DNA from: Nymphon striatum
Taxonomy: Eukaryota
NCBI GenBank assembly: GCA_016618385.1
Contig: JABFOP010000159.1
Location: 502,555-566,554, forward strand
Direction of reading: 5' to 3'
DNA length: 64,000 nucleotides
Made by a program: the position numbers and the translations under genes. How positions within the stretch are numbered: position 1 is the stretch's first letter; every line of letters begins with the position of its first letter. The notes under the pieces were generated by a model that saw only the letters and a program-made list of their open reading frames with translations, did no database searches and had not been told where the DNA came from. This document shows, one piece after another, positions 5,992 through 58,010 of this stretch.

Positions 5992-6141
5992 ATGAAGCTT
6001 TTGCCTAATTCAGTGAAAAATTCAGTTTTCAGCAAACAAACCTTCTTCTTAGACCTAACAAATGATGACAAATGCAACTTGAATGCTATCAAAGAAAAGA
6101 TTTTAAACAATGGTGGCTTTGTTACCACTAATCCATCAATA
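5992..6141 (+). CDS. PARP4: PARP4-like exon 1 (start codon; BRCT domain N-terminal half)
   Basis: The ORF from ATG 5992 encodes MKLLPNSVKNSVFSKQTFFLDLTNDDKCNLNAIKEKILNNGGFVTTNPSI. This resembles the human PARP4 BRCT N-terminus (..KKLQTDIKENGGKFSFSLNPQCTHII). The donor GTAATA lies at 6142 and the exon ends in phase 0. Confidence 0.6.
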
Positions 6142-6789
6142 GTAATAATTTGTGTTTTCTTTAAAATTGATTTATCTATTATATTAATTTATTAATGTAT
6201 TTAGACTTCATGAAGAAATGATTATTCTATTTATTAAGACCCCACGCCGCAAAAAAGTGTGCCAAATTTCAGCTGAGCTGGAAAAGTTGCAATAGTTTTT
6301 AATGTGTTTTGCTTTTTGCGACAAATTTACTACTTGAATATTACAGATGTGAAGTCGGAATTGAAATTGCTTCAGTAGATACAAAGTTATGGCTATTTTA
6401 GGTGTGGACCTTCAACTGCCTTTAAGTTGAAAATCTCTAGGAGAGCGCATTTCAACATCAAACAGCGATTCAGCATGATGTAGTTCCGAGGTTTTCAGGT
6501 TTCATTGTACCTACTAGGTACCATCTAATCAATCTTGTTCTTGTATCGTATTTTCTTAATTTCACTAAGTCTACTATTAATATATCAATTGGTGAATGTG
6601 TTGATCCTAAAATGATTAATTATTGAATTATAAGTTTGATTAATTTGACAAAGTTAAAGTTAACCTAAACAAAAGTTTTAATTTATTTCCAATTTGCTCT
6701 CTCTGCTATTACAAGGAAATTGTCAAATTTATTGTGTTGATTATGTTATATTCTGCAAAAAATGTCTATCCATTTCTTTTTTTCCTCAG

Positions 6790-6967
6790 TGCACTGCAAT
6801 CCTAAAGAGTAAGTCTAAAGGTGCAAAAAGATCTTCTTCTCATCCTGTTCTTTATCTTGACTATCTTGATGCTTGTTTACTGGAAAAGCGATGTGTGGAC
6901 TCTAATTTATTTGCATTTCCGGAAACTGAAGAAGAAGAACAATTCAGCAATGGTGTGATATCTACAG
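6790..6967 (+). CDS. PARP4: PARP4-like exon 2 (BRCT C-terminal half)
   Basis: A polypyrimidine tract and CAG acceptor lie at 6787-6789. The exon encodes CTAILKSKSKGAKRSSSHPVLYLDYLDACLLEKRCVDSNLFAFPETEEEEQFSNGVIST, which aligns to the human CTHIILDNADV..KSIREKRLLD region. The donor GTATGA is at 6968 and the exon ends in phase 1. Confidence 0.6.
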
Positions 6968-7147
6968 GTATGAATATTCAAATTGGTCATTCTATTACGT
7001 AACCATTACATTTTGTATGAGGCTTTTCATTTGTCTTTAGTTTTGAATAACATGTTAACAAAGCAATTTGAGTCAAATGGAGCAAAATGATGATGAGGAG
7101 CAGCACATGTTGTTGCCTAACATAAACAATGACAAAAAACAAACTAG

Positions 7148-7303
7148 TTATATCTTCTGTTTTCGAGATGCTGCAGCTGCTCAACAAATCCCAATTTCAA
7201 ATATCACAGGATTTCTGGAAGCCAGATAAATTGTTTGGTGCCCTTGTAGTGGATGATACAGCCAAATTCATTGGATCATTCAATGGAAAATCCCTAATCT
7301 CTG
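7148..7303 (+). CDS. PARP4: PARP4-like exon 3 (candidate; phase-1 symmetric, possibly cassette)
   Basis: The exon encodes VISSVFEMLQLLNKSQFQISQDFWKPDKLFGALVVDDTAKFIGSFNGKSLIS. This aligns to the human EFGMQNVEIPHLPQDFEVAKYNTLEKVGMEGGQEAVVVEL. The acceptor is AG at 7146-7147 and the donor GT at 7304. The exon is in phase 1 on both sides, so the gene still reads through if it is skipped. Confidence 0.4.
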
Positions 7304-8276
7304 GTAGAGAAGAATGTAAATTGAGAAGGGAATCTTTTTGCTGAATTGTGGGCTTTGTGGAGGCAATAAAAACGAATTCCATGGCATTCAACTGTACACA
7401 GGGTTCTCATTAGGAACCGGCCGCCAGCTTAAAAGGCTGCTTCAAAACGAACTCAGGCCGGTTCAAATCGACAAAAAAAAAAAAAATTATATCAAAGAAA
7501 TTTGTAAACATCCGGCCGGAAACCTAAATTTTACCCCTATCATGGTGAAAATAGCACAGAATGCACGATTTCACACCTAGAAATCAAAAATTTTCTGGGG
7601 AGCATGGCACTGGACCCCCCTAGCATGCTTTACATCTACGGTGCTCGCATGTTTGGGTCGAGCTTCAAATTATTTGAAAGCCTCTTACAAAATTTCTTAT
7701 TGAGAACCCTATGTATATGCTTACTACTCCACTCTATCAGAGTAGATATAGTGCTCAGTAGTATGAGGGTGGCTGCTAATCTGTGCTTCTGATAATACTG
7801 CTTGAATGGCATGAAGTTAGTACCTGCAAGTACCATTAGTTCATATTCGGAAAAGCAATCAGTAAATGAAAGGCTCTTTTGCCACAGTGAAAATTCTACA
7901 TAATCTTAAGTAGAAACCGTTCATAATTCAGAAATTAATCAAATTCCTCATTAAAAATTGCTATACACTCCTCTAGCACATACTAAAAGTATTGGCTTGT
8001 AGTTCTAACAGAGAAGCACTGCATTCAGTCGAATGAAAACGGCCTCCAGCTTGCCATAAACCCATGTGAGTTTAGTGCAATAAGGTTTAAAAAAAAAAAA
8101 TGGTAGTACTTGTTTCTGTTTGCTCCATCTAAAATTACTATCCACATGAATGGCTCATTATGAAATTGGAGTTGGTTTGTTAGAACCATTTAATGTTTAA
8201 AGAATAAGTCAGGAATTTTGAAATTTTTTATATTTGTCAACTTTTTTTTTTCTTCTTGATAATGTTTCGAATTTAG

Positions 8277-8395
8277 AATTTGTTAAACCAAGCGAAGAAA
8301 ATGAAGATGAAACAAATCTGGACTCTATTCATACTCAACCCTATATGGAAGCGTGTATTAAAAACTACGAATTATTAAAATCATTTGTTTTTAAG
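8277..8395 (+). CDS. PARP4: PARP4-like exon 4
   Basis: The acceptor is TTTAG at 8272-8276 (phase 1) and the donor GTAGGT at 8396 (phase 0). The exon encodes EFVKPSEENEDETNLDSIHTQPYMEACIKNYELLKSFVFK. It is acidic, has a clean ORF, and its splice phases are consistent with its neighbours. Confidence 0.5.
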
Positions 8396-10640: not shown

Positions 10641-10742
10641 GATGCTGACCGGATTTGCGTTGTTGAGTTGCATGCTGAAATTTTTGAAAAGTTTTCTGCT
10701 AAACGATTTGCTATAATCCAGCACATGGATTATCTTTCAGAG
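10641..10742 (+). CDS. PARP4: PARP4-like exon 5
   Basis: The acceptor is GATCAG and the donor GTTTGT, with phase 0 on both sides. The exon encodes DADRICVVELHAEIFEKFSAKRFAIIQHMDYLSE. This resembles the human EAVVVELQCSRDS..RRQFAIKK. Confidence 0.55.
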
Positions 10743-11670
10743 GTTTGTTTTAGATTACTTTAATATCGTATTTTTGTCTTTATTAGTCCTTTCTTTTGTA
10801 CTGATATCCAGAGATGCCAACTGCTACGTAATTTTCGTTGTGACTACGGATTTATGCCTCAAAATATGGAACTGTGATTTTACCTTGAAAACTACGGATT
10901 TCCGCACATTTATCCTATTTTGTATGAAGCAAATTGCATTTTCCACCAATTTCCTAAATCTTATCTATCTGTATTTCCAAGTTATGGCTACCTCCATTTG
11001 TAAAATAACCTCAGGTTTGTCGAGTATTCGATTTTGCACTCTGATTGGTTAATATTATTATGGAACGGTGCAGAACTATTGACAAATAGAAAAAACCTTG
11101 ACTTTTCTTGTGTAGTGCAAGTGTCATTTCATATATAGTAAGCAACAAGACTCAAATGTAGAATGGTGTCTTCAAAGTAAAAAGAAGAAAGTTGTTTCAA
11201 ACCAAAAGTTTCTAGCTGAATATGCAGTTGAATTTCCTTGACACATTTTAACTGCAGTGAGTAAAGAGAGTACTTTTAAAGTTAGAAAATGGCGTTAGCG
11301 CAGGATTTTGATTTTTATAAAATGCTGTTTGCGCTCTATTTTGGGCAGCGAAATTAGTCGTTCACGTGATCATGGTTTGAGATCATGGTGAGTAGACAAG
11401 TATGTATTTTATTGAAGTATTGAATGTGACAATTAGAATAATAATATAAGTGTTAATATGATTCCTAAAACATACACTTTGTCATGAATAACATTTAATA
11501 TTAGGTGAAATTTAGTATGTGAAACACTACGCTTTACTAGTAGAAAACTATGCCTAGCGGGTAGCGCTGTCAGCATGTTGGCATCTCTGGATATCTGTTG
11601 GCATCAAAATCTAGTCATTATTTCAAATTTTATTATTTAATTTCCTAATTCTCTTCCTTGTATTTAGCAG

Positions 11671-11964
11671 TCTGGTTCAATTAGAAATAGAATGCTGGTT
11701 GTAGAAGATGGAGTAACTGCCGAAAGATTATATGAGATGCTTTATGATCAGTTATTACTTGTTGAGAAAATGGAAAGACATTATCATTGTCCACCTATTT
11801 GTATTGGAACTGAAAGTTTTCAGCAATATCAACAAGAGTGGAATGCGAATGCTGCAGTTTTGTCACCAAAAATTCTTGATTTGCTCAATTATCTTTGGCA
11901 AGAAGCTCATGGGGAGTTACAATCCCAGTTAGCCACACCACTCCAACAAATTACAATAAATAAA
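11671..11964 (+). CDS. PARP4: PARP4-like exon 6 (helical regulatory-like region)
   Basis: The exon encodes SGSIRNRMLVVEDGVTAERLYEMLYDQLLLVEKMERHYHC...LWQEAHGELQSQLATPLQQITINK. EDGVTAERLYEMLYDQLLLVEKMERHY aligns to the human EDASEYFENYIEELKKQGFLLREHF. LWQEAHGELQSQL aligns to IWAEALGHLEHML. The acceptor is CAG at 11668-11670 and the donor GTAATT at 11965. Confidence 0.7.
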
Positions 11965-12193: not shown

Positions 12194-12531
12194 ATAAATG
12201 AAGCTGAAGGAATTCTTCTAAGTATTAGAGAACGTCAAGTAGCGTGTGATTCCCATAAAAATTTGTGTGACCTCAGTCATCAGTTTTACAATTTGATTCC
12301 ACACCATGATAAGGCTTGCATTGAAACTCTCAGAGATGTTGTCAAGAAGCAGGAGTTATGTCAGTTAATTCGAGATGTCATTACTGTAAGTGAAACCACA
12401 GGATGGGATCTAAAATTTCAGACTCAATCAGCTTTATATAGAGCATTAAAATGTCAAATTGAATATATCAGTGAAGATGATCAGCGTTTTTATGACATTT
12501 CTGATCTGATATACCGTTCCCAGCATCATGG
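12194..12531 (+). CDS. PARP4: PARP4-like exon 7 (helical regulatory-like region)
   Basis: The exon encodes INEAEGILLSIRERQ...QELCQLIRDVITVSETT..ALYRALKCQIEYISEDDQRFYDISDLIYRSQHHG. This is strongly similar to the human VSKAEGILLLVKAAL...ADLCQLIRDMVNVCETN..AKYRALRCKIEHVEQNTEEF. The donor is GTATGT at 12532 and the exon ends in phase 2. Confidence 0.75.
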
Positions 12532-13776: not shown

Positions 13777-14013
13777 GAATTCATGTATTACCATTGATAA
13801 TATATATTCTGTTAATCGAATGATTGAAGCAAAACAATTCAACTCAAAAATCAGGAACATTAAACGACTTTTTCATGCTTCTGGGGTTGCAAATATTGTT
13901 GGAATTTTATCTAGAGGACTTTTGATGCCCAAAAAGTATGTTGAAGATATGGGAGGCAAACGAACAGATGCTGGCATGCTTGGCAGTGGTATATATTTCT
14001 CTGACTCTGCAAG
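13777..14013 (+). CDS. PARP4: PARP4-like exon 8 (PARP catalytic domain part 1; NAD+ site His and Tyr)
   Basis: The exon encodes ..RLFHASGVANIVGILSRGLLMPKKYVEDMGGKRTDAGMLGSGIYFSDSA. This matches the human RPLLHGSPVQNIVGILCRGLLLPKVVEDRGVQRTDVGNLGSGIYFSDS. It reads correctly only with the phase-2 acceptor at 13775-13776. The donor is GTTTGT at 14014. Confidence 0.85.
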
Positions 14014-14111: not shown

Positions 14112-14295
14112 TACAAGTTTAAAATATGCTAATTGTAGTAAAATAAAAGGTACACGGTTCTTACTTGTTCACGATGTAGCTCTTGGAAAAATATTTCAAA
14201 CATCAAAGTTTGATACCTGTCTGGATTGTGCTCCAGAAGGCTATGACAGCACCCATGGAGTAATGGATCAGTTTAATCAGAAATCAGATTTCAAG
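14112..14295 (+). CDS. PARP4: PARP4-like exon 9 (PARP catalytic domain part 2)
   Basis: The exon encodes STSLKYANCSKIKGTRFLLVHDVALGKIFQTSKFDTCLDCAPEGYDSTHGVMDQFNQKSDFK. This aligns to the human STSIKYSHPGETDGTRLLLICDVALGKCMDL..APPGYDSVHGV. The acceptor is CCAG at 14108-14111 and the donor GTAGTA at 14296. Confidence 0.8.
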
Positions 14296-14643: not shown

Positions 14644-15055
14644 ACGAAACTCATGGATTTATGGCAGGCTGAAGGTCATATCCATCCAAATAGATACAGT
14701 GCTTCTCTGTCAGAAGTACAACCCATGATGGGTAAGTCTTATTTCTCACGCTGAAGCCTAAAATTGGCAGATCTTGCTGGTGCTGCACTTCACCAGGACC
14801 TTCCACCCCACTATTCTTTGAAAAGCGATGTGTGTTCTTTAACATGCAGAGGGTGTGACCCTCATCTACACCGTACCTCCATTAACATCCCATCCAAGGG
14901 ATGGAGTATCTTCTCTCCTAAACCAGCCTTCATCTAGTATGAGAGAGGAAAGCAAGTGAATACAATGTAAAGGGTGCAAAAGTGGAGAGTCAAATATGAT
15001 TCGAACCTGGGTCAATGACGTCCTGAATGGAGATATTGTACCAGTTGGCCACCCG
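14644..15055 (-). mobile_element. tRNA-derived SINE, divergent copy
   Basis: The body is alignable to the copies at 45303, 53461 and 17581. The tRNA-like head lies at the right end (..GATTCGAACCTGGGTCAATGACG..). Confidence 0.55.
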
Positions 15056-16322: not shown

Positions 16323-16491
16323 GATGATGAATTTGTTATATATGATACCAATCAGCAAATAATGAGTTATCTTGTTGAATTCCACATTGAAGATGATACA
16401 CTGATACCAAGAAATCCTCTAATTTTAAACAGCAATGAGCCTGAACAAATGGAAATTAATGCTTTCGATGACAGCAATAGCAATAACATTT
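16323..16491 (+). CDS. PARP4: PARP4-like exon 10 (PARP catalytic domain part 3; catalytic Glu)
   Basis: The exon encodes DDEFVIYDTNQQIMSYLVEFHIEDDTLIPRNPLILNSNEPEQMEINAFDDSNSNNI. DDEFVIYDTNQ aligns to the human DDEFVVYKTNQVKMKYIIKF, which contains the catalytic glutamate. The acceptor is TCTAG at 16318-16322 and the donor GTAAGC at 16492. The exon ends in phase 1. Confidence 0.75.
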
Positions 16492-17580: not shown

Positions 17581-17936
17581 GTCAACTTATATGGGTTTAT
17601 GGCAAGCTGGAGGCTTTGTCCATCCGACTGAATGCAGTGCCTCTCTGTTAGAACTACAAGCCATGGTGAGCGAGTCTTATTTCTCACACCGCAGTCAAGA
17701 ATAGGCATTCCTCACAGGTGCTACCCTTCACCGGGATCACCCTACTCTTTATTCAAATAGTGAAGTGTGTTCTTTAACGTGCAGAGGGTGTGACTCTCCT
17801 TTACACAGGACCTCCGTTTAACATCATATCTGAGGGACAGAGTATTTTCTCTCTAAAACCAGCCTGCATCCGGTATCAGAGAGGAGAGCACGAGAATACA
17901 CAACGTAAAGGGTGAAAAAGTGGTAGGGTTCGAATG
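17581..17936 (-). mobile_element. tRNA-derived SINE (head truncated), in intron between exons 10 and 11
   Basis: GTCAACTTATATGGGTTTATGGCAAGCTGGAGGCTTTGTCCATCCGACTGAATGCAGTG...GGGTTCGAATG is about 90% identical to the copies at 45303 and 53461. Confidence 0.7.
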
Positions 17937-18035: not shown

Positions 18036-18166
18036 CTGTGGATGATGCTTACAATGTTACGAATCCAAATGACAAAGTTGTATCTGGATTACAAAATAAA
18101 AAAGATGAAAAGATACCCCTCAACTACGTTTCCTTACAAATCAATGTTATTGATTCTATTGGAAAA
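18036..18166 (+). CDS. PARP4: PARP4-like exon 11 (linker before VIT)
   Basis: The acceptor is CTCAG at 18031-18035 (phase 1) and the donor GTAAGT at 18167 (phase 0). The exon encodes SVDDAYNVTNPNDKVVSGLQNKKDEKIPLNYVSLQINVIDSIGK. This resembles the human ..SGNLVPLEDVHIKGRIIDTVAQ. Confidence 0.6.
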
Positions 18167-18257: not shown

Positions 18258-18476
18258 GTTACAATATATCAAGAGTATAAGAATTATAGTAATGAAGCGA
18301 TAGAGGCAAAATATGTGTTTCCTCTGGACGAGTCTGCCGCTGTTTGTGGCTTTGAAGCATTTATCAATGAAAAACATGTCATTGGAGAAGTTAAAGAGAA
18401 AGAAACTGCTCATAAAGAATACAAGAAAGCTATTAGTGAAGGGCATGGTGCATATTTAATGGATGAAGAAAAACCA
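18258..18476 (+). CDS. PARP4: PARP4-like exon 12 (VIT domain)
   Basis: The exon encodes VTIYQEYKNYSNEAIEAKYVFPLDESAAVCGFEAFINEKHVIGEVKEKETAHKEYKKAISEGHGAYLMDEEKP. This is near-colinear with the human VIVFQTYTNKSHVPIEAKYIFPLDDKAAVCGFEAFINGKHIVGEIKEKEEAQQEYLEAVTQGHGAYLMSQDAP. The acceptor is TCCAG at 18253-18257 and the donor GTAAGT at 18477. Confidence 0.85.
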
Positions 18477-18603: not shown

Positions 18604-18912
18604 CATTCGAGCCCTCCACTCTTTACGTTGTGTATTTCAGTGCTCACCTATATGAAATCAGATGCGGGCTGGCTTAACAGAGAAAATACTCTGTCCCTTG
18701 AATAAATGGAGGTCGCATGTTGAAGAGAGTCGCACCCACGGCACGTTAAAGAACACACTTCACTACTCGAACAAGAATAGGGTGGAAGGTCCCGGTGAAA
18801 TGGAGCACTTGAAAGGCAGGCCATATCTTGGTTGCAGTGTAAGAAATAGAATTTTCCCACCAGTGCTTGAAGTTCTGACAGAGAAGCACAGCTTTCAGTA
18901 TAGTTGACACAG
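18604..18912 (+). mobile_element. tRNA-derived SINE (plus orientation, truncated), in intron between exons 12 and 13
   Basis: This is the reverse complement of the SINE body: CATTCGAGCCCTCCACTCTTTACGTTGTGTATT...GGGTGGAAGGTCCCGGTGAAATGGAGCAC.... It is inverted relative to the 17581 copy. Confidence 0.65.
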
Positions 18913-19009
18913 CCCCTAGCCTAATGACCTGCATGAGGGTTAGAAGGTGAAACCATATTTTTTTTTAGATTCGAGTTAAAACCTAGAATGGTCAGGTTTT
19001 TTGAGTAAC

Positions 19010-20277: not shown

Positions 20278-20442
20278 AACATATTCATGGTACATGTAGG
20301 AAATTTGCCTGCAGGAGCAACAGTCATTATCAAGATTACATATGTGATTGAACTGCATGTTGAGGGAGATTATTATTTATTAAAGATTCCTAATTATGTG
20401 GCACCATGGGATTCATCTGCTTGTTTGGATAAAGAAAATCAG
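20278..20442 (+). CDS. PARP4: PARP4-like exon 13 (VIT domain continuation)
   Basis: The exon encodes NIFMVHVGNLPAGATVIIKITYVIELHVEGDYYLLKIPNYVAPWDSSACLDKENQ. This aligns to the human VFTVSVGNLPPKAKVLIKITYITELS..MPATVAPWQQDKALNENLQ. The acceptor is TTTAG at 20273-20277 and the donor GTAATT at 20443. Confidence 0.8.
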
Positions 20443-22905: not shown

Positions 22906-25089
22906 TAGTCCGGGAGCCAACTGCCATTTTTCCCCTTAACCTTGCATTGTTGTATTAAGTTTTTTTTACTGTTGATTTTGGTAGCCTAGGGTCTCTATTT
23001 TCAGAAACTGCTTGATGACATGTTGTCACCTTTGAGCAATTTGAGAAATTCAAGATGGCGTCCAAGATGATATAAATGACCATAACTCCCTACCTGTTCA
23101 TCATAGGAAGGTGATTTTTGTCTCTATACCTAGGTTTTAGGGGTCAAGCTATCCATTAGAACTAAGTATTATGTTAATATCGTATTACATAATGGTAATT
23201 TCCAAGATGAGTCTGTGAAAGACTATATAGCGAACTTCAACTATGCCATAGGAAAAAGGTTACGGGTCGAGTACGTGTATCTGATATTTGACAGATATTA
23301 TGATTACAGCACGAAAAGTGTTACCAGAGGATCTAGGGCAACTGGTGTCAGTAGGGCTCATCATTTGCAAGTCAACAGTAAACTTCCAGCGCAGAAGATT
23401 CTACTAACCTCTTCCAAAAACAAGAAGCAACTGATGCAACTGATAGTTGATGATTTTGTCCAGGATAAGAAGTTTCACGAGGACAACACACAACATTACA
23501 AGTTAGTGGTAACAGGAGCAGATCCGGTGCCAATCGAAATCAGTGAAGGTGGAGTTGTCATCTCACGGGCAGATCTGTCAACTTCACACGAAGAAGCAGA
23601 TAACGTCATTGTCCAACAGGTGTTGAGTTGTGCCGCGGAAAATGCAGAAAGCAAAATCACTGTTGTTGCCGATGACACTGACGTCTTTGTACTGTTGTTG
23701 TATTATCATCACATGGCAAATCTCAAGAATGTTGTATTGATGGAGTCCCCATCAAAGGAAGGGCGGTGCTTGATATAGGCAAAACTGTGCAGAAGCATTG
23801 TCAGATAGTCGAAGGAATACTCCCGGCACATACACTTTCTGACTGTGACACCGTCGCCTCCTATTTTAAAATTGGAAAGGCTACTGTACTCAAAACACTT
23901 CGATCGGGGCACTCACTTAACTTGTTGGGTGCACCAGGGCATTCTATGGAATCTGTTATTCAACAGGCTACCTCCTTCATTTCCGCGTGCTATGGACAAA
24001 CAGACTGTAGTACAATGTCAGAGACAAGGTTAAAGGTATGGCTGTCACAAACAGGCAAAGGGTCATCAACACTGAAGTTGTGTACCTTGCCACCAACAAC
24101 TGAGGTATTCAAAGAGAAGAGCTCACTATCAGGCTTTGGTATGGCGGTCACTGAAAGCGCAGAATCCACCCGAGTTGGACTCAACGGAATATGGTTGGGT
24201 AAAGGATGACCAAAACAAGTCCCTTCAACCAGTCACCCTACCTGATGAAGTCGAACTAGCCCCACAGATGGTACTACGTCTAATAAAATGTGGATGCCAC
24301 AGTACTACTCCATGCAGTTCACGTGCTTGTAGTTGCAACTCTGCAAACATGAAATACACAATATTTTGCGCCTGCTATAATCAGGGTTGCTGTAACCTGA
24401 CATCATAGCTGATTGCATGTCTTTGTGATGCACATGAGCAACACAACGTACAACAGTGTAGATTATTTGGTAAAGTGGTAGCCATCCTTAATTATGACTT
24501 GTATAATATGCTTTTGGTAGTCTGTGAGAATTCAGATTTACAATTAAAGAACATTTGTTATAATATAACACCTGTGGTCGTTTACCTTTTCATATTTTCC
24601 ACCAAGATTGAATAGTATAGAAGATATACCAGTGCTTGTAAACTGGCAGCCATCTTGGATTTGTAGATGACATCATCAGTATATGAACTTTGATCTGATA
24701 CAGATAGATGTGTCTCCAAAATACTCAGGGATAGACACCTTCACGACTAATTTGGAGTAAATAGTATATATGCCAGTTTTAGTGTTACGGCGGCCATCTT
24801 GGAAATTACTATTATATAATACGATATAAACATAGTACTTAGTTCTAATGGATAGCTTGACCCCTAAAACCTAGGTATAGAGACAAAAATCACCTTCCTA
24901 TGATGAACAGGTAGGGAGTTATGGTCATTTATATCATCTTGGACGCCATCTTGAATTTCTCAAATTGCTCAAAGGTGACAACATGTCATCAAGCAGTTTC
25001 TGAAAATAGAGACTCTTGGCTACCAAAATTAACAGTAAAAAAAAAATTAATACAACAATGCAGGGTCAACCATCTCTGCCCCCGGACTA
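22906..25089 (+). mobile_element. TIR DNA element (about 2.2 kb, about 230-bp terminal inverted repeats) carrying a PIN-like and CXC ORF
   Basis: 22906-23170 is the reverse complement of 24836-25089 at about 95% identity. The flanks are GGCTA|TAGTCCGGG...CCCGGACTA|CTAAG, suggesting a target-site duplication of CTA or TA. Internal ORFs at 23215-24408 are in three frames. Confidence 0.65.
23215..24408 (+). CDS. TE-borne ORF: PIN/FEN-like nuclease-type acidic motifs plus C-terminal Cys-rich CXC-like module (frameshifted or spliced)
   Basis: The ORF spans three frame segments (23215-23778, 23766-24209, 24136-24408). Motifs include SHEEADNVIVQQV, VVADDTDVFVLLLYY, SDCDTVASYFKIGKATVLK and CGCHSTTPCSSRACSCNSANMKYTIFCACYNQGCC. 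The PIN-like reading comes from the motifs only, and I could not assign a family. Confidence 0.45.
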
Positions 25090-40116: not shown

Positions 40117-40168
40117 GATGACCAATCAATGCAGGTCTCAATTCAAGAACAAGGTGATTATAAAAGTA
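40117..40168 (+). CDS. PARP4: PARP4-like exon 24 (micro-exon)
   Basis: The acceptor is TATCAG at 40111-40116. The exon encodes DDQSMQVSIQEQGDYKS. A phase-1 donor GTAATT at 40169 is needed to match the following phase-1 exons. Confidence 0.4.
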
Positions 40169-41654
40169 GTAATTTTTTTTCTTTTTTTATCGTTTAAATT
40201 TTGATAAACTTAACATTAATTTAAATATAGTTTATTGATTGCCATTATGAGACATTTTCTTATAATTCAGTTTGAAAAGTGGGAGTTTTTGATCCTTGAT
40301 TTTGACCAAAACACTTGACCCTTATAAATAACAATTAACACGAATAGTCATACGAGAGGCTCAAGCCGCTTAGATTAGCTTTCAAGACGTTTGGAGGATT
40401 ACATTTTGTCGTGCGACACCTCTCAATCCTCTTAAATCTAATCCTAGTTCGAAGTAGGTTTAGATTTTCAATCCGGATACATTTTGTCGTGTGACAGGTC
40501 TTAAGCCAATAAACTCAAGCCGTCCTGTGCAGAATCGAATAGATGTTTGCTAAACGCTGACATCCGGGCATCACAAACAGTGAGTAAACAAACATGTATA
40601 AACCTTGAAACCAACTTCCAACGTTTTAAAACGAAAATCATGCTCATGCGCGAACTCGCTTTGCACCTCCCATTATCACCACTGGATATCAAAATTCAAT
40701 CCGAAATCTGAAGCCTCTTGAGTCTCAAGCGGCTTGAGATTTTGTCGTGTGACTCCAGCTATAGTCATAATAGTCAAATAGTTGTTCGTTTAACTTCAGT
40801 TTAACCTAAAAAAAATAAAATAAAATATTTACAAAATTTGCAAGATTAACAAAATAGTTACTTATAATTTGTGCAAAATTATAAATAAGAAAGAATCATG
40901 AGGGTGCCTGAACAATTGCCCTAAACAAATATGTTAACACCATTAAAAATGAAAAGAAAATAACTAATTCACTGGTTTGTTTGCAATTAATTAGATTAGA
41001 AAGTGTTGTGTTCAAAGATTATAATGTATGTCTTTGCTTTCACTTTGAAGGTTGTCTCTCCCTCACTTCCTTCCCCACCTGCTCATTTGCATATTATCTA
41101 CTGTTTTCTATAAATGTACTTTTGATATAAAATAAAGGGAGTCTCTACTCAACATCTGAAGAGGACTCATCTGATTACTGTCTCCTAGCTAGACCCACAA
41201 ACATAACAGAAAGTCTTCTTGTTTACTCTCCGTATATCATGGCCATAATTTCAACCATTATTTTTGCTTACTCATGGTTGCTGCTGTTGTTTGCAAAAAA
41301 ATTTACTTTACCAACATAATTTTTATCATTTTACTCAAACTAATAAATAACCAGTGCCATGAATTTATGTAATAATATTTATATAAACAATTAGTAATAT
41401 TTATAAAGGTTTACAACATTTATTTTAAGAAAGAACTAGATTTAAACTAAATATAGCTGTGTAAAATGTTGATGGTTCATTTCATTTCATTGTTATGGGG
41501 CTCGGCATATTTAGTGGTATGCTTAGTTTCATATCTACCTGTTGCCCTGCTTGCCTTTATCCAACATACTCTAAAATAATCTAAAACTTCAATACAACTC
41601 CAATTTTGTTCTTTGTTGTTAATCCATTTACACTTGGTATTTGTTGAATGATAG

Positions 41655-41753
41655 ATGTCCAATCAAATACGGGCAACCAAAAAGAGAAAGCTGAATGGAT
41701 GAACGATGTGCACGATGAAAGTAGTGAAGATGACATGGGGTTCAGCATATTTG
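41655..41753 (+). CDS. PARP4: PARP4-like exon 25 (copy 1 of triplicated exon; SSEDDMGFSIFG)
   Basis: The phase-1 acceptor is TGATAG at 41649-41654. The exon encodes VQSNTGNQKEKAEWMNDVHDESSEDDMGFSIF. The donor is GTAGCA at 41754. The exon and its flanking intron are tandemly repeated at 41912 and 42155. Confidence 0.55.
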
Positions 41754-41911
41754 GTAGCATCTTTATTTTTATATCTACCCATTATACTATTTCTAGTCCT
41801 GGTCTTTATCTAACATGCTTTAATAATATCATAAATTCCAATACTTACAACTAATTCTAGCTGTTTTCTTTTTTGTTACTATATTTATTCTTGATGTTTG
41901 TTCTATAATAG

Positions 41912-42016
41912 GTGACCCAATAGACGTGTGTGTTCAAAAAGAGAAAGCTGAATTGAAAGAAAAAAGAGTGCATGATGAAAGTAGTGAAGATGACATGGGG
42001 TTCGGCATATTTAGTG
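41912..42016 (+). CDS. PARP4: PARP4-like exon 26 (copy 2 of triplicated exon)
   Basis: The exon encodes GDPIDVCVQKEKAELKEKRVHDESSEDDMGFGIFS. The acceptor ATAATAG ends at 41911 and the donor GTATGT is at 42017, both phase 1. Confidence 0.5.
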
Positions 42017-42154
42017 GTATGTTTAGTTTCATATCTACCTGTTGCCCTGCTTGCCTTTATCTAACATACTCTAAAATAATCTAAAACTTCAATACAACTC
42101 CAATTTTTTTCTTTGTTGTTAATCCATTTACACTTGGTATTTGTTGTATGATAG

Positions 42155-42280
42155 ATGACCTATCAAATACAAATACTAGTATCCATAAAAAGAAAGCTGA
42201 ATTGAAAAAAAAAGCGATAGCAGCACAAACTATAGACGAAAAAAGTAGTGAAGAAGATATGGGGCTCGGCATATATCTTG
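42155..42280 (+). CDS. PARP4: PARP4-like exon 27 (copy 3 of triplicated exon)
   Basis: The exon encodes DDLSNTNTSIHKKKAELKKKAIAAQTIDEKSSEEDMGLGIYL. The acceptor TGATAG ends at 42154 and the donor GTATGT is at 42281, both phase 1. The upstream 135 bp of intron is about 95% identical to the intron before exon 25. Confidence 0.55.
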
Positions 42281-42599
42281 GTATGTTTAGTTTCATATCT
42301 ACATATTACCTTGCTTTTATCCTGGCGTTCATCTAACATGTTTTAGTAGCCATCTTAAACTCCAATACGTATTCCCTATAATTTATATAAACTTTTTCCA
42401 AGCCTCTTTCAATTTATCAAAAATTTCTGTTCATTGTTTCGATGAAATCAACATAATTCATGATAATTTCAAATCTTCTACAAAATTTCAATTGCATCAT
42501 ATTTCTGTATTTCTAATTTTTATCACTTTTAAAATTTTGGAGAATACAAAAAAAAGATACTCTATTAGAAAATTTGAAATATTAATTTTTTTAATACAG

Positions 42600-43099: not shown

Positions 43100-43560
43100 T
43101 AAAACAAACTAGGTTTAACTCTTTCTTTTTCTTCTCGCCATATTCTCGCCAAGAGTGAATGGAAAGACTTGAAACTGTATGTGGCAAGGAATCGACATTT
43201 CCAAGGGACCCATCCACTTGCAGTATGGCAGAGGCAGGAGGATGCTGGGAGAGACGATTATGGAAACATTCTTAAGATTGTCCATCTTACAAGCATATAC
43301 CCCCTTAGTAATGCTGCCTGTGAGAGAGGCTTTTCTGTAATGAAAAGAGTGAAAAATGACTGGAGATGTTCACTAAACAATGAAGTTCTTGACCAGTTGT
43401 TGAGAATAAGCTTGACAGGCCCACAACTCGATGCATTCGACCCCACACCAGCAGTCAGAAGATGGTGGGTTAGTGGACAAAGAACCAAAAGACCAACAAC
43501 ATTGCCATATGGACCAAGGCATTAAGTATTATATGATATTAAGATAATCATGAGAAGGTT
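43100..43560 (+). mobile_element. hAT transposase C-terminal (hATC dimerisation) fragment, ZMYM1/Charlie-like
   Basis: ORF 43169-43525 encodes ..LSNAACERGFSVMKRVKNDWRCSLNNEVLDQLLRISLTGPQLDAFDPTPAVRRWW.. This matches the canonical hATC motif. No N-terminal transposase or TIRs were found, so it is a fragment. Confidence 0.6.
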
Positions 43561-47868: not shown

Positions 47869-47869
47869 G

Positions 47870-48252: not shown

Positions 48253-51200
48253 AGTAATTTGAATTATAAACATTCAAGTTGCAAGTTTGCTTTCATTCTT
48301 ATCGAGATTAGTTAATAGTCTGAGATGTTTAATTTAAAATCCTTGATTTTATCCTCATTGATAGCTTTCTATTTATCTATTTATTTGAAATGCTCATTTC
48401 AAGATTTCATCCCTGAAGAAATTTCTCAAGTATTGAACATTGTTATCTAGCAGATAGCAGATTTTACATTCAAGTGAAGTGATATTAATTTGACTAGAAA
48501 ACTTTACCAGTGTCCAGACAGATTATTATTTTATTCTCAACTTGAACACAACCCATAAGTCCTTCACATATTTAATAAATGTCATTTAGAGAATGTTCAA
48601 ATAAATTATACACAGCATAGATTAGAACACGTACACGTATCTATTGCACGTGGTTTCTATTGACATATATATTTGTCTCACTCTATACTTTAATCATAGT
48701 TAGTAGAGGGGGACTGGTTTGGAAGGCCGGCGAACTTCAAAGGCGCTGCCCATTGTCAGGCGTTTGAGGTTGAAATGCACCATCATCTGGCTGAACCGTG
48801 CACAAGCAGAGCTTATTTTACACTAGTCAAGGCTGACATGAACGATTTGTTTTTCTTTGGAGACGATTTTGAAGCTATTCTCGACATTTTCGAAGGCGAA
48901 GAAGATATAGAGAATCAAAGGTCTTGCAATCAACTTGAACACGGTGTTTAAATTATTCAATTCCGATGTACATTCAGCAAGTTACAGCCTTTTTAAAGCT
49001 CACCAAAACAAAGTGGAAAAGTAACGGGCAATTCTACTTTTAAGTGTTCCTCAAATATTTAGGCTACACTCGAAATTTGTTCAAGTTCAAAAGTTGTATT
49101 TATAGAAGACATTAGGTCAAATTAATCAGTATAATTATAGGCTGATAACCACCTTGAGTACACATTCAAGAAGTCGAACAATAACCTATCCTTTTGTTGT
49201 CTTCCGGGCTCACAGGCAGTGCTCACAAGCTGGGCTTCGTAAACAGTCCACTGTCTGTCCCCTCTATTATCTCTGCTGAAGACTATTTTTTAGACTATTT
49301 CAAGTATTTGGTAATGTTGAAATGCAAATTGAATCTAAGTTGTTTTTAAATGTTTTTAAAAGCTATTTGTCGATTATGTGATAAAAAGATTATTAGACTC
49401 TTTCCAATTTGATATTAGATTTATTTATAAAACTCTCATATCAAATGAGAACTCGTTACCAGGGCACACACTCGCACTACAGCCAAGAATCGGCGTACTT
49501 TGCAAGTGCTGGTCACCGGGACCTTCCACCCTACTCTTTGTTCGAATAGCTTTTATGAAAAATAACAATTTTCACGAAGTATTTTATCTTCCACAATTTC
49601 TTATTTATGTTTTGTTTTTAAGGGTTTACAGTTAGCATGCTATTTTTCTATTCCAAATAAGATATTTGTGATTCCAATCAAACAATCCAAGTGATATAAA
49701 ATTAGGCCTTTGTCAGTTTCATTCATCTGTTGTCATGCACTGAGCTGTGGTGTCATCACGATAGCTTTGTATACAGTGTGACGTCATCTTTTTTTTTTTT
49801 AGCTTGTCACTGTGATTTTTAGCTACCTGTGATTTTTAAACCTCCCAAAAAGACCCCTCCCGCGCAAATTTTCCAAGTCATTTTTTGATTTTCAATAAAA
49901 ACATGTGTCTAAGTTTCAATTTATGACAATAAAAATATTGATGAAATGCCATTTCATAGGCATTTTAAGCATTATTTAAGACGGATGTAAATGGTTCAAG
50001 CATAGTTCAAGCTTGTAATGCTTGTGTGTAGACAAGTTTGTGCACAGTACTTCAGCTTTTCTGGGAATAAAATCGAACAATAACCTATTCTTTTGTTGTC
50101 AGGCAGGCTTCCCAACCATCTCCCTCTACTAACTATGCTTTAATCAAGCATACATGAGATTTGTCCACGGATCGACAGATTTCCGCTTTTTTAAAAGCTG
50201 TTGGGATAGTTCCTGAGATCTGCGCAGATCCGTGGAGAACAATTTTTTTTTTTGGAGGGGGAAGAATATCTGGGGATAAATGTATGTACCGTAACTTCGT
50301 ACGTCCAGCGCCATTTTAATTTTCAAGTTTTTTGCGTCGGCTGCCTTATAAGGTTAATTTCCAAGTAAAGATATTCAGCATTTCTACAAGTCAAGTCCAA
50401 AGTAGGTACAAATCCGATTGGTTCACATATGGTCACATGATGATGATGACAACACAATACATGGTTTTTCTTGTAAAAACATGTTCACACCTCAAACTGA
50501 AACTGAACTCTAAAATAAGCTTTAATAGAGAATTAGACATTAATAATTTTAATCTCCTTTAGCGTTTGTTTGGCATGGTTTGTACATTGAATAAAAATGA
50601 ACTGACAAAGGCGATAGACGTTGGAGTGAAAAACAGGTTCAACTAGGCATGGCTTGAGCATGCAGTTAGCATTTCTTTTCGACGGAAAGGTTGTAGAGTC
50701 GAATTTGAGAGATTGAATTGAGAAGATGTTTATTGTAATTGAAAGTCTTTTAGCATTATTTTCTTGTCTAAGTTGAGTTAAAATGGTCTCCTGTAAGGCG
50801 AAATGGCAAAAAAGAAATTCGCACCTAGGAGCCTAAGATGGCCCCCAGACCGGAAAATAACTTAGGCGAGCAGAGTGAGCGTGAATTTTTTTCCGCTTTT
50901 TTGATTATTTAGTCTGTCTCAGGTATGATCAAGGTGCATGTTATTTGTAACAAACTTACTATTTTTTGTTGTTTTCGTCACCTTTTTATATCATGGGTAT
51001 ACACAGGTATACTCACAGAGGATCAATTTCGGTGACAAACTGGTAATAATTTAACACACACGTCTTTGTCTCAAGAATTTTATTTGAATACTGAATAGAA
51101 CTTCACACCCTCCACCAAATTGTAGAGTACGTACTCGGTATAACAATGATACACCTTTGAACTTTGTGGCTTTTATTTCTTTAAACACACAATGAGTTCA

Positions 51201-51429: not shown

Positions 51430-52138
51430 TGTTCCAAGATTTCACAGAAACTATACAGCATTTCTTGATGAAAATGAGCAAACTGCAGATGAAGCTGGCC
51501 CTTCTGAATTTGCGCCACCAGTAGCAAATTTAGGCTTTGGAAGAGCATTTTCTGGGCAACAAAATACGTCTTCCCCACTTGCACCAGGATGTATCTCTGG
51601 AAGTAGACATCTTCAGCAAAGGATAGGATTTCGCTTTGGAGGTGAAGGTGACCCTTCTGAAGTTGCGCCACCGGCAACAAATTTGAGTTATGGAAATGCA
51701 TCTTTACCATCTGCATCAGGATTTAGCTTTGGAAGTGTTCCGAGTAATTTTGGTGCACCTGCTACAGGATTCAGCTTTGGAAGCGGACCTCCTCAACAAC
51801 AAGTTAATCTTGCTCAACCTGCATCAGGATTTAGTTTTGGAAGTGGACCTCCTCAACAACAAGTTAGTCTTGCTCAACCTGCATCAGGATTCAGCTTTGG
51901 AAGTGGACCTCCTCAGCAACAATTTAATCTTGCCCAATCTGCATCGGGATTTAGTTGTGGAGGAGAACCTCGCAACAAAGATTTATCCAAACAATCTGCT
52001 GCTGCTGGTCATCTGTTTGGTTCAAATCAAGCTTTCTCTGCAACTTCTAGTTTATTTCGAGGTCCCATGATTGGTTCTAATTCAGTTAGTGCTCCAAGAT
52101 TTCAAAATGAAAGTAGAGCATCTACTTCTTGCCGAAAA
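51430..52138 (+). CDS. PARP4: PARP4-like large repeat exon, part A (FG-like 20-aa repeats; this frame ends at TGA 52139-52141)
   Basis: The phase-2 acceptor is TTGTAG at 51424-51429. The exon encodes SVPRFHRNYTAFLDENEQTADEAGPSEFAPP...PASGFSFGSGPPQQQVNLAQPASGFSFGSGPPQQQVSLAQPASGFSFGSGPPQQQFNLAQ... It has 60-bp internal repeats. It corresponds to the low-complexity human FGSAAPP..QFSQGPVPG region. This frame reaches a stop inside the second copy of a 662-bp tandem duplication. Confidence 0.5.
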
Positions 52139-52141
52139 TGA

Positions 52142-52638
52142 GCAAACTGCAGATGAAGGTGGCCCTTCTGAAGTTGCGCCACCGGCAACAAATTTGGATT
52201 ATGGAAGTGCATTTCCTGGGCAACAAAATAAGTCTTCCCCACCTGCATCAGGATTTAGCTTTGGAAGTGTTCCGAGTAATTTTGGTGCACCTGCTACAGG
52301 ATTCAGCTTTGGAAGCGGACCTCCTCAACAACAACTTAATCTTGCTCAACCTGCATCAGGATTTAGTTTTTTTTTTCAAGATCCAATGATTGGTTCTAAT
52401 TCAGTTACTTTTGAGGATTTTCTTCCACCAGCACCACAATCAACAGAAAATCATCAGTTGCCACCAGGTTCACAAAGATCTTTATTCTTTTCAAAACATC
52501 ATCAGATAGAAGGAAGTGCTTCAATACAGCACAGGAAGGCTTTCTTTTCTGTTACCAGCTTTCTCTCAGATATTTTGAAATATATTAGTCAAAGATATGT
52601 GCAGGATGAATCAGTGAAGAAACTCTTTGTGACACACG
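52142..52638 (+). CDS. PARP4: PARP4-like large repeat exon, part B (second duplication copy, +1 frame relative to part A)
   Basis: The frame-0 reading encodes ENEQTADEGGPSEVAPPATNLDYGSAFPGQQNKSSPPASGFSFGSVPSNFGAPATGFSFGSGPPQQQLNLAQPASGFSFF..MIGSNSVTFEDFLPPAPQSTENHQLPPG...ISQRYVQDESVKKLFVTHG. The donor GTAAAT is at 52639. Joining part B to part A requires a frameshift, or an intron that I did not find. Confidence 0.45.
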
Positions 52639-52716
52639 GTAAATTTTTTCATTATTCATTATTTTTTCATTTACTGAATCTTTCACATATAGAAATATTT
52701 TTTCTTGTTTTATCAG

Positions 52717-52826
52717 GAATAAAGATCCCTGTCATGCAGACTAACATGAAATCTGCTGTTAACAATGATACTATTCATTGGAAAAGTGATAAAATAAAAG
52801 AATTCCTGGAAAATTTGTTGGAGAAT
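52717..52826 (+). CDS. PARP4: PARP4-like exon (C-terminal region)
   Basis: The phase-1 acceptor is TTATCAG at 52710-52716. The exon encodes GIKIPVMQTNMKSAVNNDTIHWKSDKIKEFLENLLEN. The donor is GTAAGT at 52827. Confidence 0.55.
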
Positions 52827-53460: not shown

Positions 53461-53917
53461 ATTTTTTTTTTTTTTTTTTTTTTTTAAACCTTAGTGCACT
53501 AAACTCACATAGGTTTATAGGCAAGCTGGAGGCCGTTTCCATCCGACTGAATGCAGTGCTTCTCTGTTAGAACTACGAGCCATGGTGGGCGAGTTCTATT
53601 TCTCACACCGCAGTCAAGAATAGGTGTTCCTCGCAGGTGCTACACTTCACCGGGATCACCCTACTCTTTATTCGAATAGTGAAGTGTGTTCTTTAACATG
53701 CAGAGGGTGTGACTCTCCTTTACACGGGACCTCCATTTAATGTCTTATCCGAGGGACGGAGTATTTTCTCTCTAAAACCAGCCTGCATCCAGTATCAGAG
53801 AGGAGAGCACGAGAATACACAACGTAAAGGGTTAAAAAGTGGTGGGGTTCGAATGGGATTTGAACCTGGGTCATTCGAGCCCAGAACAGAGATCTTAACC
53901 ACTCAGCCACCGCGCTC
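53461..53917 (-). mobile_element. tRNA-derived SINE, full-length copy with 25-nt poly-T (a poly-A tail on the minus strand)
   Basis: T25 then AAACCTTAGTGCACTAAACTCACATAGGTTTATAGGCAAGCTGGAGGCCG...GGGTTCGAATGGGATTTGAACCTGGGTCATTCGAGCCCAGAACAGAGATCTTAACCACTCAGCCACCGCGCTC. It is about 93% identical to the copy at 45303. Confidence 0.8.
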
Positions 53918-54635
53918 CGTTAAATGATATATTTGCTGTACTAGCATGAAGAATTTTGAAAATATTTTATTCAAAAGCTTAGATATTGATTTTAAATGCT
54001 TGCCAATGAATTTTGGCAAATTAGCATTATGCTGTTCACGTTTTAGCTGTATTTTAGCAAATATATGCAGCTAGCAGTAGGGATTAGAATTGGCTATATT
54101 GTCAGTACACAGTTACCTTCTCCATCATCTACATTAGACAAAGATATGCTTTTCTATAAAATACTGTTATATAAATTCTTCTTTTGTTTCGGGAAAGTTT
54201 TGATTCATTACAAATCATTATGTACATCCATGGGGCAGGATTTTTGTCTTATGACCATTCTCCACTTGAAGCGGAACTAATTCTAAATTTAATGTAGAAA
54301 AAAATGTTTGTTTTATTTAACATCGAACAGGTGTTTCCATTTCCAATGCGAGTGCCGATTCAGAATGAATAGATTTTATGACGAATGGAAGTCAACAAAA
54401 TTCATGGAATTGTAGTAAAAACACAATTCTTTTTAAACTAGCTTCATTTTATCTACATCGACTACAAGTGGAAAACCACCATTAGAATAGACAATTTAAG
54501 ACTCGGTTTTGTTACGTAAATAATCCAGATTAATATATTTTTATTTAGGAATTCAAAATTATCTATACACTTTGTTGTTTCAGAAATTATTATTACAACT
54601 ATATTTTTTAAGCCTTTTTTTTCATATATTTCTAG

Positions 54636-54717
54636 GGAATTGCAATCATTGACCTTAATGAAGAACCCCTGAATGTTATCAATGAGAAACTGGTCTGTTC
54701 GGGCCTACATTCATTAG
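54636..54717 (+). CDS. PARP4: PARP4-like exon (C-terminal region)
   Basis: The acceptor is TTTCTAG at 54629-54635 and the donor GTAAGG at 54718. The exon encodes GIAIIDLNEEPLNVINEKLVCSGLHSL. Its phase-1 end matches the terminal exon. Confidence 0.5.
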
Positions 54718-56710: not shown

Positions 56711-57646
56711 AGTTTGCCACAAGGTTACCCCCAATATATCGTACCTAGTGCCCATTATACACCTGGGTGGAGATAGGCAATCAAGGTTAACTGTCTTGCC
56801 CAAGAACACAAATAAAGATGTTCAAACACACGATTTGAACTAAGTCCAACGTCCAACCCTGCAGCTGCTGCACTACTTGCTTCTCGAAAGATGGAGAAAG
56901 AACACACCTGACTCAGGATATGAACTGGCGATCTTTTGATTGAAAGCTGGACCTGGAAACACTACATTACCCCCAGCTCCTTGGTCACCATATAGTCAAA
57001 ACTACTTGCTCTTTGTGAAAGATGTTACCCTGTTAACCATCTGAGAATGCACCAAACTAAAAGTAACTTTTTATTTGGCATCAAACATCACAGTAAGACT
57101 TCATTCTTCTTAATTACTGTTACTATCTGAATATATGTACTACAGAATAAATAATACTCATTAAAGGTGTTGAAAGTATCTTCTCCAAGGATGGCGTAGG
57201 CCTGCTATTTCCGTATTTCCATCTTCTCTGTCCCCAGTAGGCCTTTAATTCTGTGTATTGAGGCAAATAATAAAAAATTGTTTGTTTAGGGTAACCCGAC
57301 CGACCGTAAAAAATGGCCTGACTCATATTTTTTTTTCCAGCTTTTTTGAGTGAAATAATTTTATTTCCAACTGTTGCAAAAAACCAAATATTGTCTGGAA
57401 ATTATCGGTAATTTTCCCCCGCCATTGTTTGATTGAAGCGATGTAGGCCAATCTCACTCAAGTATCACAAGAGGAGGAAAAAAAAAAAAAAAAAAAAACG
57501 ACCGACCGACCGACCCACATTTTTCAAACTGGTCATGTTACCCTTAAACAAACATTTTTTTAAGGATGGCCCGACTAGTATTGACCCTTACAAGATTTGT
57601 GGTTGCATTTTTTTCAGTGTAGTTCCTCACAGTCTCTATGATTTAT

Positions 57647-57647
<1 letters not shown>

Positions 57648-57679
<32 letters not shown>

Positions 57680-57690
57680 TTCTCCTACTC
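57648..57690. repeat. (AAT)14 microsatellite in the last PARP4 intron
   Basis: TAATAATAATAATAATAATAATAATAATAAT lies directly upstream of the terminal-exon acceptor region. Confidence 0.8.
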
Positions 57691-57702
57691 CTTTGCTTTT
57701 AG

Positions 57703-58010
57703 GAAAAAAAGCTGAAGAAGAAATTACTACTCTAGTTTTGCTGATGTACATGACATTGAGCATCTTTTGTGATTCATTACCAGACCTGAAGAGTATTGTA
57801 ATTGAAAGTAGAAACTTACAAAGTTACATCAAAGTAATAGCAAACAGTTTGGTTTTGGAATATAAACGGAACAGCAGTAATAACACCATATTGAAGTCTT
57901 TACTGAGAATTGAACAGCTGAGAACACGCTATCCTGTTGCTTCACATACTTTGCAACTTGGTCACAATTGGGAAAGCTTCTGCTTTAGTTTGCTTTTTGA
58001 GAATTCATAA
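57703..58010 (+). CDS. PARP4: PARP4-like terminal exon (MVP/vault-interaction region; stop codon)
   Basis: The phase-1 acceptor is TTTTAG at 57697-57702. The exon encodes GKKAEEEITTLVLLMYMTLSIFCDSLPDLKSIVIESRNLQSYIKVIANSLVLEYKRNSSNNTILKSLLRIEQLRTRYPVASHTLQLGHNWESFCFSLLFENS*. This is colinear with the human KGRECLLDLIATMLVLQFIRTRLEKEG..RNIPWAFEAIKQASEWVRRTEGQYP. The stop TAA ends at 58010. Confidence 0.7.

Follow-up and report, generated by a model that had tools for sequence, protein, structure and literature searches.

A probable PARP4 (vault PARP) orthologue with P-stalk-like and FSFG motifs in its predicted linker, in a 64,000-nucleotide stretch of Nymphon striatum DNA

The stretch of DNA analysed here, referred to below as the window, comprises 64,000 nucleotides of Nymphon striatum contig JABFOP010000159.1 (positions 502,555 to 566,554), and all coordinates given are those of the window. 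Very probably, positions 5992-58010 of its plus strand form one protein-coding gene for an orthologue of PARP4, the vault PARP, which would consist of about 29-30 exons and specify a product of about 1770 aa. In the predicted product, a BRCT-like region would be followed by a WGR-like region, HD and ART, then by a VIT plus vWA module of ITIH-like character, a low-complexity linker of ~450 aa and an all-helical C-terminal domain. The linker would be composed of an acidic stretch, an RS/K-rich stretch, three P-stalk-like motifs and FSFG repeats, and the C-terminal helical domain most probably corresponds to the human MINT/MVPID domain, by which PARP4 is docked inside the vault shell. The locus is an ordinary, expected gene of a known family, and its mildly unusual points are confined to the linker motifs.

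The orthology is most evident in the 1176-aa product of the first 19 exons. In a phmmer search of the PDB with this product, the best match was human PARP4 (11jf/9bw6/9bw7; E=3e-198), with residues 102-1176 of the query paired with human residues 108-1183 in a single alignment. The further matches were catalytic fragments of PARP4 (8e-76 and 5e-55), PARP2 (4e-18), PARP1 (1e-14) and PARP3 (2e-10), PARP4 and PARP2/PARP1 thus being separated by 180 orders of magnitude. By local (Smith-Waterman) alignment, residues 10-1176 correspond to human residues 8-1183 with 35.8% identity over 1140 columns; the ART and VIT domains are 50% and 57% identical to their human equivalents, respectively, and no gap in the alignment of the 19-exon stretch is big enough for a lost exon. 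Pfam models for VIT (121 bits), PARP (86), VWA_3 (66), VIT_2 (44.5) and PARP_reg (27.3) were recognized in the same product, as were VWA and VWA_2. An earlier note on this DNA, made from its letters, had proposed a PARP4 orthologue and had considered an ITIH heavy chain or another PARP as the best match that would speak otherwise; it is PARP4 that tops the PDB search, and PARP, VIT, VWA_3 and PARP_reg all lie above the Pfam cut-off. For these N-terminal 1176 aa, the sequence analysis thus demonstrates how the exons are arranged, which domains are present and that the protein is an orthologue.

The best relatives in a collection of 5.8 billion proteins were PARP4 or PARP4-like proteins of birds, frogs, lizards, rotifers, scallop and sea urchin. 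Those named relatives in which PARP and VIT occur together are called PARP4 or PARP4-like, and many of them have both in one chain. As no close relative was found in this collection, the source lineage is without representation there. These results also bear upon the possibility that a PARP1/2/3-type gene and an adjoining ITIH- or VWA5A-type gene have been misread as one. The VIT and vWA domains are found in ITIH and VWA5A proteins as well, and VWA5A has a C-terminal helical domain that is distantly similar to MVPID (PMC10450202). However, the single alignment with human PARP4 spans ART, VIT and vWA, exons 9 to 11 are joined in phase (the join of exons 9 and 10 included) so that VIT directly follows the catalytic module within one protein, PARP and VIT are combined in many of the database relatives, and no ITIH chain was observed at E<=0.001 in the PDB search with the 1176-aa product. 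The adjacent-gene explanation is already contradicted by these observations, and the likelihood that we assign to it is very small.

The exon model was built by enumerating GT donors and AG acceptors outward from tblastn matches, with phase continuity and an open frame being required, and the joined peptide was scored against a reference. For tblastn, relatives from the database and a human PARP4 sequence served as references; the human sequence was verified only for its length (1724 aa), for residues 108-1214 against the PDB alignments, and for the numbering of S1614, K1618 and R1689 against PMC12280208. For the C-terminal third of the gene, codon usage in the 19 exons was contrasted with that in their introns to train a log-odds score, which was applied together with splice scores and phase. 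In the window, which is AT-rich (30-40% G+C, about 34%), the 19 exons between positions 5992 and 33327 keep their phases and produce a stop-free frame of 1176 aa, with all internal boundaries of the AG...GT type. Ten more exons (exons 20-29; 37249-58010) complete a 29-exon path of 1768 codons, of which the sole stop is the terminal TAA at 58008-58010, and the gene end at 58010 given in the earlier note is confirmed by the closure of the frame at this codon. Upstream of the ATG at 5992 there is an in-frame stop at 5962, 30 nt away. A 5' untranslated exon may lie further upstream, as is hinted at by an acceptor at 5951. An AATAAA signal is present at 58254, 245 nt past the stop.

All of the exons lie on the plus strand. 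The first two encode the two halves of the BRCT-like region, exon 1 (5992-6141) with the ATG start and the donor ATA/gtaata, and exon 2 (6790-6967) with a strong polypyrimidine acceptor and the donor CAG/gtatga. The linker and start of the WGR-like region are encoded by exon 3 (8277-8395; phase-consistent AG/GT, aligned to human 108-160), and this region continues through exon 4 (10641-10742; identified by phase and alignment to human) into exon 5 (11668-11964; junctions and human alignment), which contains EDGVTAERLY... and extends to the HD. In PARP4 proteins, a WGR domain sits between BRCT and HD (PMC10450202); the corresponding region of the window is colinear with human 108-232 but shows only 21% identity, and no Pfam match was found for it at E<=1. 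The HD, which precedes the ART, is encoded by exon 6 (12194-12531), containing ELCQLIRDVITVSETT; it is recognized by PARP_reg at 27.3 bits against a cut-off of 26.8, and the human HD+ART crystal chain 8sx1 is matched with E=8e-76. The ART domain is divided among exon 7 (13777-14013; peptides, Pfam and PDB), which carries the catalytic His (LFHASG) and Tyr (GSGIYFSDS), exon 8 (14112-14295; Pfam and junctions) and exon 9 (16323-16491; junctions and PDB), which completes the domain with the catalytic Glu (DDEFVIY). These three motifs align with LLHGSP, GSGIYFSDS and DDEFVVY of human PARP4. With the H-Y-E motifs kept, the catalytic module should be able to bind NAD+ and to transfer ADP-ribose, and it is from these motifs that we infer enzymatic activity.

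The VIT domain begins in exon 10 (18036-18166; in-phase junction), has its core, AKYVFPLDESAAVCGFEAF..., in exon 11 (18258-18476) and ends in exon 12 (20278-20442; junctions). The ITIH-like region that follows is encoded by exon 13 (25297-25413), which was located by means of a Rotaria relative (P0062), and exon 14 (25960-26103; YVPRLWVETHPE), which was identified by a tblastn match and its junctions. The vWA domain starts in exon 15 (28395-28581; VIDASNSM) and continues through exon 16 (28673-28937) to exon 17 (30636-30735), the latter two being placed by their junctions; its metal-site motif DxSxS is intact (DASNS in the window versus DCSSS in human). Exon 18 (31819-32061) has an alternative in-frame donor at 31995, and the frame stays open to 33145 with either donor. 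The donor at 31995 has the stronger splice signal and that at 32061 gives the better match to human, and the two may reflect alternative splicing. Exon 19 (33145-33327) encodes LIHALAARAILRDWEDG...FIAIERRDK. The seven peptides quoted in the earlier note were all found on the plus strand, at 11704-11784, 12353-12400, 13868-13909, 13982-14011, 16323-16355, 18306-18404 and 28452-28484; its exon numbers are one higher than those used here, and these peptides are in exons 5, 6, 7, 9, 11 and 15 of the model presented here.

Similarity to human PARP4 extends beyond the 19-exon stretch. Exon 20 (37249-37416), which encodes an acidic part of the linker with KENIDILP in place of human KEDVDFLP, has the third-highest coding score (17), and the HMMER alignment to human PARP4 crosses the exon 19/20 junction, with human 1184-1214 aligned, and reaches human residue 1214. 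Exon 21 (39850-40044; acceptor 4.6, donor 7.5, phase 0 to 0) encodes the RS-/K-rich basic stretch, which is presumably colinear with the human basic stretch KRKHRKIPFSKRK. A 37-nt candidate, exon 22 (40117-40153), was placed by splice scores and phase (0 to 1) only. Beyond it, the region 41400-42350 of the plus strand consists of a ~250-bp unit in four tandem copies, three of which hold phase-1/phase-1 exon candidates, namely exon 23 (41655-41753; …DESSEDDMGFSIFG; weak splice sites), exon 24 (41912-42016; …DESSEDDMGFGIFS) and exon 25 (42155-42280; …EKSSEEDMGLGIYL). These exons end in DESSEDDMGF(S/G)IF or SSEEDMGLGIY, and the motif that they have in common, DESSEDDMGFGIF, is referred to here as P-stalk-like; when it is compared with the C-terminal tail of the ribosomal proteins P1/P2 (…EESDDDMGFGLFD; EESDDDMGFGLF), 10 of the 12 aligned tail residues match. 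The top PDB match of exon 24 was the tail of human ribosomal P1 at a non-significant E=0.18, and what is seen here is best described as a motif resemblance to the P-stalk tail, not demonstrated homology. The N-terminal dimerisation domain of P-stalk proteins was not found; the tail motif stands alone and internally within the PARP4 frame, and no link between PARP4 and the P-stalk was found in the papers that were searched.

The linker is completed by nucleoporin-type repeats of PASGFSFGSGPPQQQxNLAQ with a 60-nt period at 51430-52400 on the plus strand, which occur in two FG blocks containing together 11 FG dipeptides, 6 of them as FSFG. Block 2 is exon 26 (52090-52638; phase 1 to 1), which is a duplicate of block 1 and also includes the start of the structured tail. 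Block 1 (51430-52084) is an open frame with the top coding score, holding 8 FG dipeptides (4 as FSFG), and lies outside the 29-exon path. No nucleoporin domain was detected by Pfam in the FG open reading frames, and they were not assigned to the FG nucleoporins. Two other open frames, at 38499-38673 and 41131-41316, were considered as exons and rejected on phase, splice or coding score. An acidic open frame on the plus strand at 48827-48943, KADMNDLFFFGDDFEAILDIFEGEEDIENQ, scores well for coding potential and is entered and left in phase 1; as an additional cassette exon, it could lie between the P-stalk-like exons and the FG block. No match at E<=0.001 was obtained in a word-indexed search with 420 aa from the post-vWA region and the linker, and a search for 'DGSW'-type motifs returned nothing useful.

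The C-terminal domain is encoded by three exons with strong splice sites, namely exon 27 (52717-52826; …IHWKSDKIKEFLENLLEN; acceptor 5.4, donor 7.5), exon 28 (54636-54717; …KLVCSGLHSLG; acceptor 5.1, donor 7.5) and exon 29 (57703-58010), which contains the remaining tail helices and the TAA. An exhaustive HMMER search of 1.84 billion representative proteins with the tail gave a single match, a protein of 84 aa (P0073; E=4.8e-4, 51% identity over 41 aa). This protein is encoded on a 933-nt contig (L001; Logan, SRR30938156), which is more GC-rich than the window and contains three short exons. The spliced translation of this contig is 35% identical to that of the last three exons of the window, with a Smith-Waterman score of 180 versus 31.6±5.4 for shuffled sequences (z=27); the homologous exons have identical intron phases and the stop is at the matching place. 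The sequences demonstrate in this way that the three terminal exons are conserved in a second species. An acceptor for the last exon at 57784 was rejected and replaced by 57703 on the basis of this comparison, and in this start of the last exon the model differs from the earlier note.

The relationship of this tail to the human domain was assessed by two further comparisons. The Smith-Waterman scores of the tail against the human C-terminus were 60-70, compared to ~32±5.4 for shuffles (z=5.2-7.1), and the score was reached by 2/3000 and 0/2000 of the shuffles. When a profile of the two tail sequences was aligned by hhalign with human residues 1536-1724, an E value of 2e-5 and a probability of 77% were obtained over 99 columns with 29% identity. 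In this alignment, GLHSLGKKAEEE is paired with GIQSLGVKGREC and YPVASHTLQLGHNWES with YPSICPRLELGNDWDS, and exon 28 is aligned with human GIQSLG, which contains S1614. S1614 and K1618 are a salt-bridge/H-bond pair among the MINT contacts and have been mutated in earlier work (PMC12280208); the equivalents of both residues are kept in the tail of the window, and the protein on the Logan contig has Ala at the Lys position. Based upon these alignments, the tail is probably a homologue of MINT, and we infer that it binds the vault. The MVP-binding tail is nevertheless the weakest of the claims made in the earlier note, which is favored by the hhalign result (E=2e-5) and by the z scores of 5.2-7.1 but not by HMMER or by the Arg1689 position, as described below.

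A number of observations weigh against a single, complete and fully correct PARP4 model. The exon model is derived from the genomic sequence alone. The earlier note described a BRCT domain at 5992-6967, and BRCT_2 is indeed seen at residues 12-86 (E=5.9e-4), but only at 20.5 bits against a cut-off of 27.3; this sub-threshold signal appears only with the assembled protein, the single BRCT exons giving no Pfam match when scanned alone, and the top PDB match of residues 1-110 is a BRCT protein at a weak E=1. Although animal PARP4s have an N-terminal BRCT domain (PMC4245714), the region is thus best described as BRCT-like. The GT-AG boundaries and phase continuity that had been claimed for the gene hold at the internal boundaries of exons 1-19, but exon 19 itself is without a canonical phase-0 GT donor. 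The 3' end of this exon is uncertain: the only phase-0 candidate, AAG/gcttgt at 33327, would be a GC donor and possibly marks a GC-AG intron, whereas use of a weak GT at 33331, with 37319 as its partner, would omit 24 conserved residues of the following exon. For exons 21-25 the evidence consists of splice scores and phase only. FG block 1 could not be joined in frame to the exons that were found, and the need for an entry phase of 2 arises because the two blocks differ by 4 nt in length near their start, block 2 taking phase 1. A search of 42.3-51.4 kb for an exon leading from phase 1 to phase 2, as needed to connect block 1, gave as the sole fit a remnant of a hAT transposon, which was rejected; the misfit possibly reflects an assembly indel, an exon that was not found, or a block 1 that is not used. 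The description of the gene as complete is borne out by the open path of 1768 codons but depends upon these two junctions, and the exact splicing of the linker is a prediction from splice scores, coding scores and phase.

The tail likewise presents points of this kind. In HMMER searches of the PDB with the tail alone, with a 188-aa tail and with a hidden Markov model built from the window and the Logan contig, human PARP4 was not recovered at E<=10. The top matches of the tail profile, with E of about 0.06-0.1, were to the helix-hairpin-helix regions of DNA polymerase IV and were treated as chance. The position of R1689 is occupied by Thr in both the window and the Logan contig, and this arginine has been described as conserved (PMC10450202). 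In an AlphaFold2 model based upon the two-sequence alignment (window and P0073), eight helices were predicted, but with a poor predicted local distance difference test (pLDDT) score of 39. In addition, the human C-terminal sequence used in the tail comparisons is that of the reference described above, which was verified for residues 108-1214 and otherwise for its length and residue numbering. Part of the C-terminal third of human PARP4 is disordered and rapidly evolving, and because of this a weak similarity to human is to be expected in this third of the gene (PMC10450202).

Some of these observations could be accounted for if the locus held two genes, viz. a PARP4-like gene ending at 33-42 kb and a separate gene at 51-58 kb for the FG repeats and the helical tail. 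The non-canonical junction after exon 19, the 9 kb between 42.3 and 51.4 kb in which there is no convincing exon and transposon remnants occur, the position of FG block 1 outside the phase chain and the failure of HMMER to recognize the tail as PARP4 would all be consistent with such an arrangement. However, both parts are on the same strand and in the order seen in human PARP4, the step from exon 25 to 52090 is phase-consistent, the tail is tied to the human MINT domain by hhalign, and the alignment with human PARP4 continues past exon 19; we consider the two-gene explanation quite improbable. It could also be that the gene is decaying or has in part lost its function, either as a pseudogene or through disruption of its C-terminal third, and that the problem junctions are real lesions. 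The GC donor at 33327, the 4-nt difference between the FG blocks and the many transposon insertions in the introns could be read in this way, but the 19 N-terminal exons, with 3.5 kb of coding sequence, contain no stop or frameshift, the catalytic and metal-site motifs are intact, and the last three exons are open and conserved in comparison with a distant species. Such features are also commonly explained by GC-AG introns and by small indels that arise when repeats are assembled, and a decaying copy is in our view highly improbable.

The domain order deduced here is common to the window and human PARP4 (UniProt Q9UKK3; PDB 9bw6, 9bw7, 11jf, 8sx1, 8swy). The two are colinear over human residues 8-1214 and again over the last ~100 residues, their lengths are similar (about 1770 vs 1724 aa), and in both a long disordered linker is followed by a helical C-terminal domain. 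They differ in that identity is only 36% overall, the BRCT region and tail are barely recognisable, and Arg1689 is replaced by Thr. The linkers also differ: that of the window contains RS repeats, the three P-stalk-like motifs and FSFG, whereas the human linker presumably has at the colinear place only the degenerate SEDFEEDGLGVL, together with 2 FG dipeptides. The PARP4-like predictions from Pecten maximus, Lytechinus pictus, Rotaria, birds and frogs resemble the window in combining PARP with VIT (in some cases also with vWA and BRCT), and are 36-47% identical to it in the catalytic region, but none of them is close and all of the matches are fragments of <=670 aa. In contrast, PARP1, PARP2 and PARP3 (clade 1), which have HD and ART in common with the window (PARP1 also has BRCT and WGR domains, comparable with the BRCT-like and WGR-like regions here), are without VIT/vWA and without a vault-docking tail, and their matches have E values of only about 1e-18 to 1e-10. 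The ITIH heavy chains and VWA5A have the VIT+vWA module in common with the window but no PARP catalytic module. Lastly, the stalk motif of P1/P2 is terminal, whereas that of the window is internal, is present in three copies and lies inside a PARP4 linker.

Around and within the gene, several mobile or repeated elements were noted. A hAT dimerisation domain is present at 43103-43522 on the plus strand (Pfam E=1.5e-4), and by eye only we noted, on the minus strand, a frame resembling the reverse transcriptase of a long interspersed nuclear element (33815-34282), a Tc1/mariner-like remnant (4491-4718) and a retroelement-like frame (27606-27968). Intron 12 holds a block of three overlapping open frames of 214, 175 and 110 aa (23134-24405, plus strand) without a Pfam match, which is probably a decayed transposon. 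An element resembling a short interspersed nuclear element (SINE) is repeated in the window, and a dispersed repeat, translated as ...EGVTLLYTGPPFN...SEVCSLTCRG..., occurs in the introns and 3' flank at 17778-17912, 53697-53924 and 58781-58978 on the plus strand and at 14654-14881 and 18651-18920 on the minus strand. Two tRNA-like elements at 2274-2346 and 2411-2483 (plus strand) lie 137 nt apart; the anticodon called for either of them has an odd length of 4 bases, and they probably represent the heads of SINEs and not genuine tRNA genes. Within the window, Rfam and tRNA scans detected no vault RNA but only these tRNA-like elements. An open frame starting MAEEELEISSDSNSIDISSELSDFSAEDYLTEPEES, at 62263-62433 on the plus strand and 4 kb past the PARP4 stop, possibly represents exon 1 of the following gene.

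A PARP4 gene is expected in most animals, and the direct value of the present observation is small: the known PARP4 orthologues are increased by one, whose lineage has no close relative in the searched collections. The orthologue places its source among animals other than insects and nematodes (PMC4245714), which agrees with the assignment that the earlier note had made from the letters. Since some lineages have vaults without PARP4 (PMC4245714), the link between PARP4 and vaults, from which the earlier note derived a vault system with MVP, TEP1 and vault RNA, is a correlation. The MINT domain is poorly conserved, and the tail would supply a sequence of invertebrate grade for it; the retention of the Ser/Lys contact pair, but not of Arg1689, bears on which of the MINT contacts are ancestral.

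Translational GTPases are recruited by the P-stalk tail, to which ribosome-inactivating proteins also bind. The linker motifs, both P-stalk-like and FSFG, could hint at partners of the vault enzyme. One could suppose from their sequences that the linker of this lineage has acquired working motifs, viz. three mimics of the P-stalk tail and about ten FSFG/FG repeats that are lacking or degenerate in human, although we regard this as unlikely. If it were true, these motifs could serve as tethers between vault-bound PARP4 and either the translation machinery (translation factors or ribosomes) or that of nuclear transport (its receptors or the nuclear pore), and they would offer a concrete handle on the long-debated links of vaults with polysomes and with the nuclear pore.

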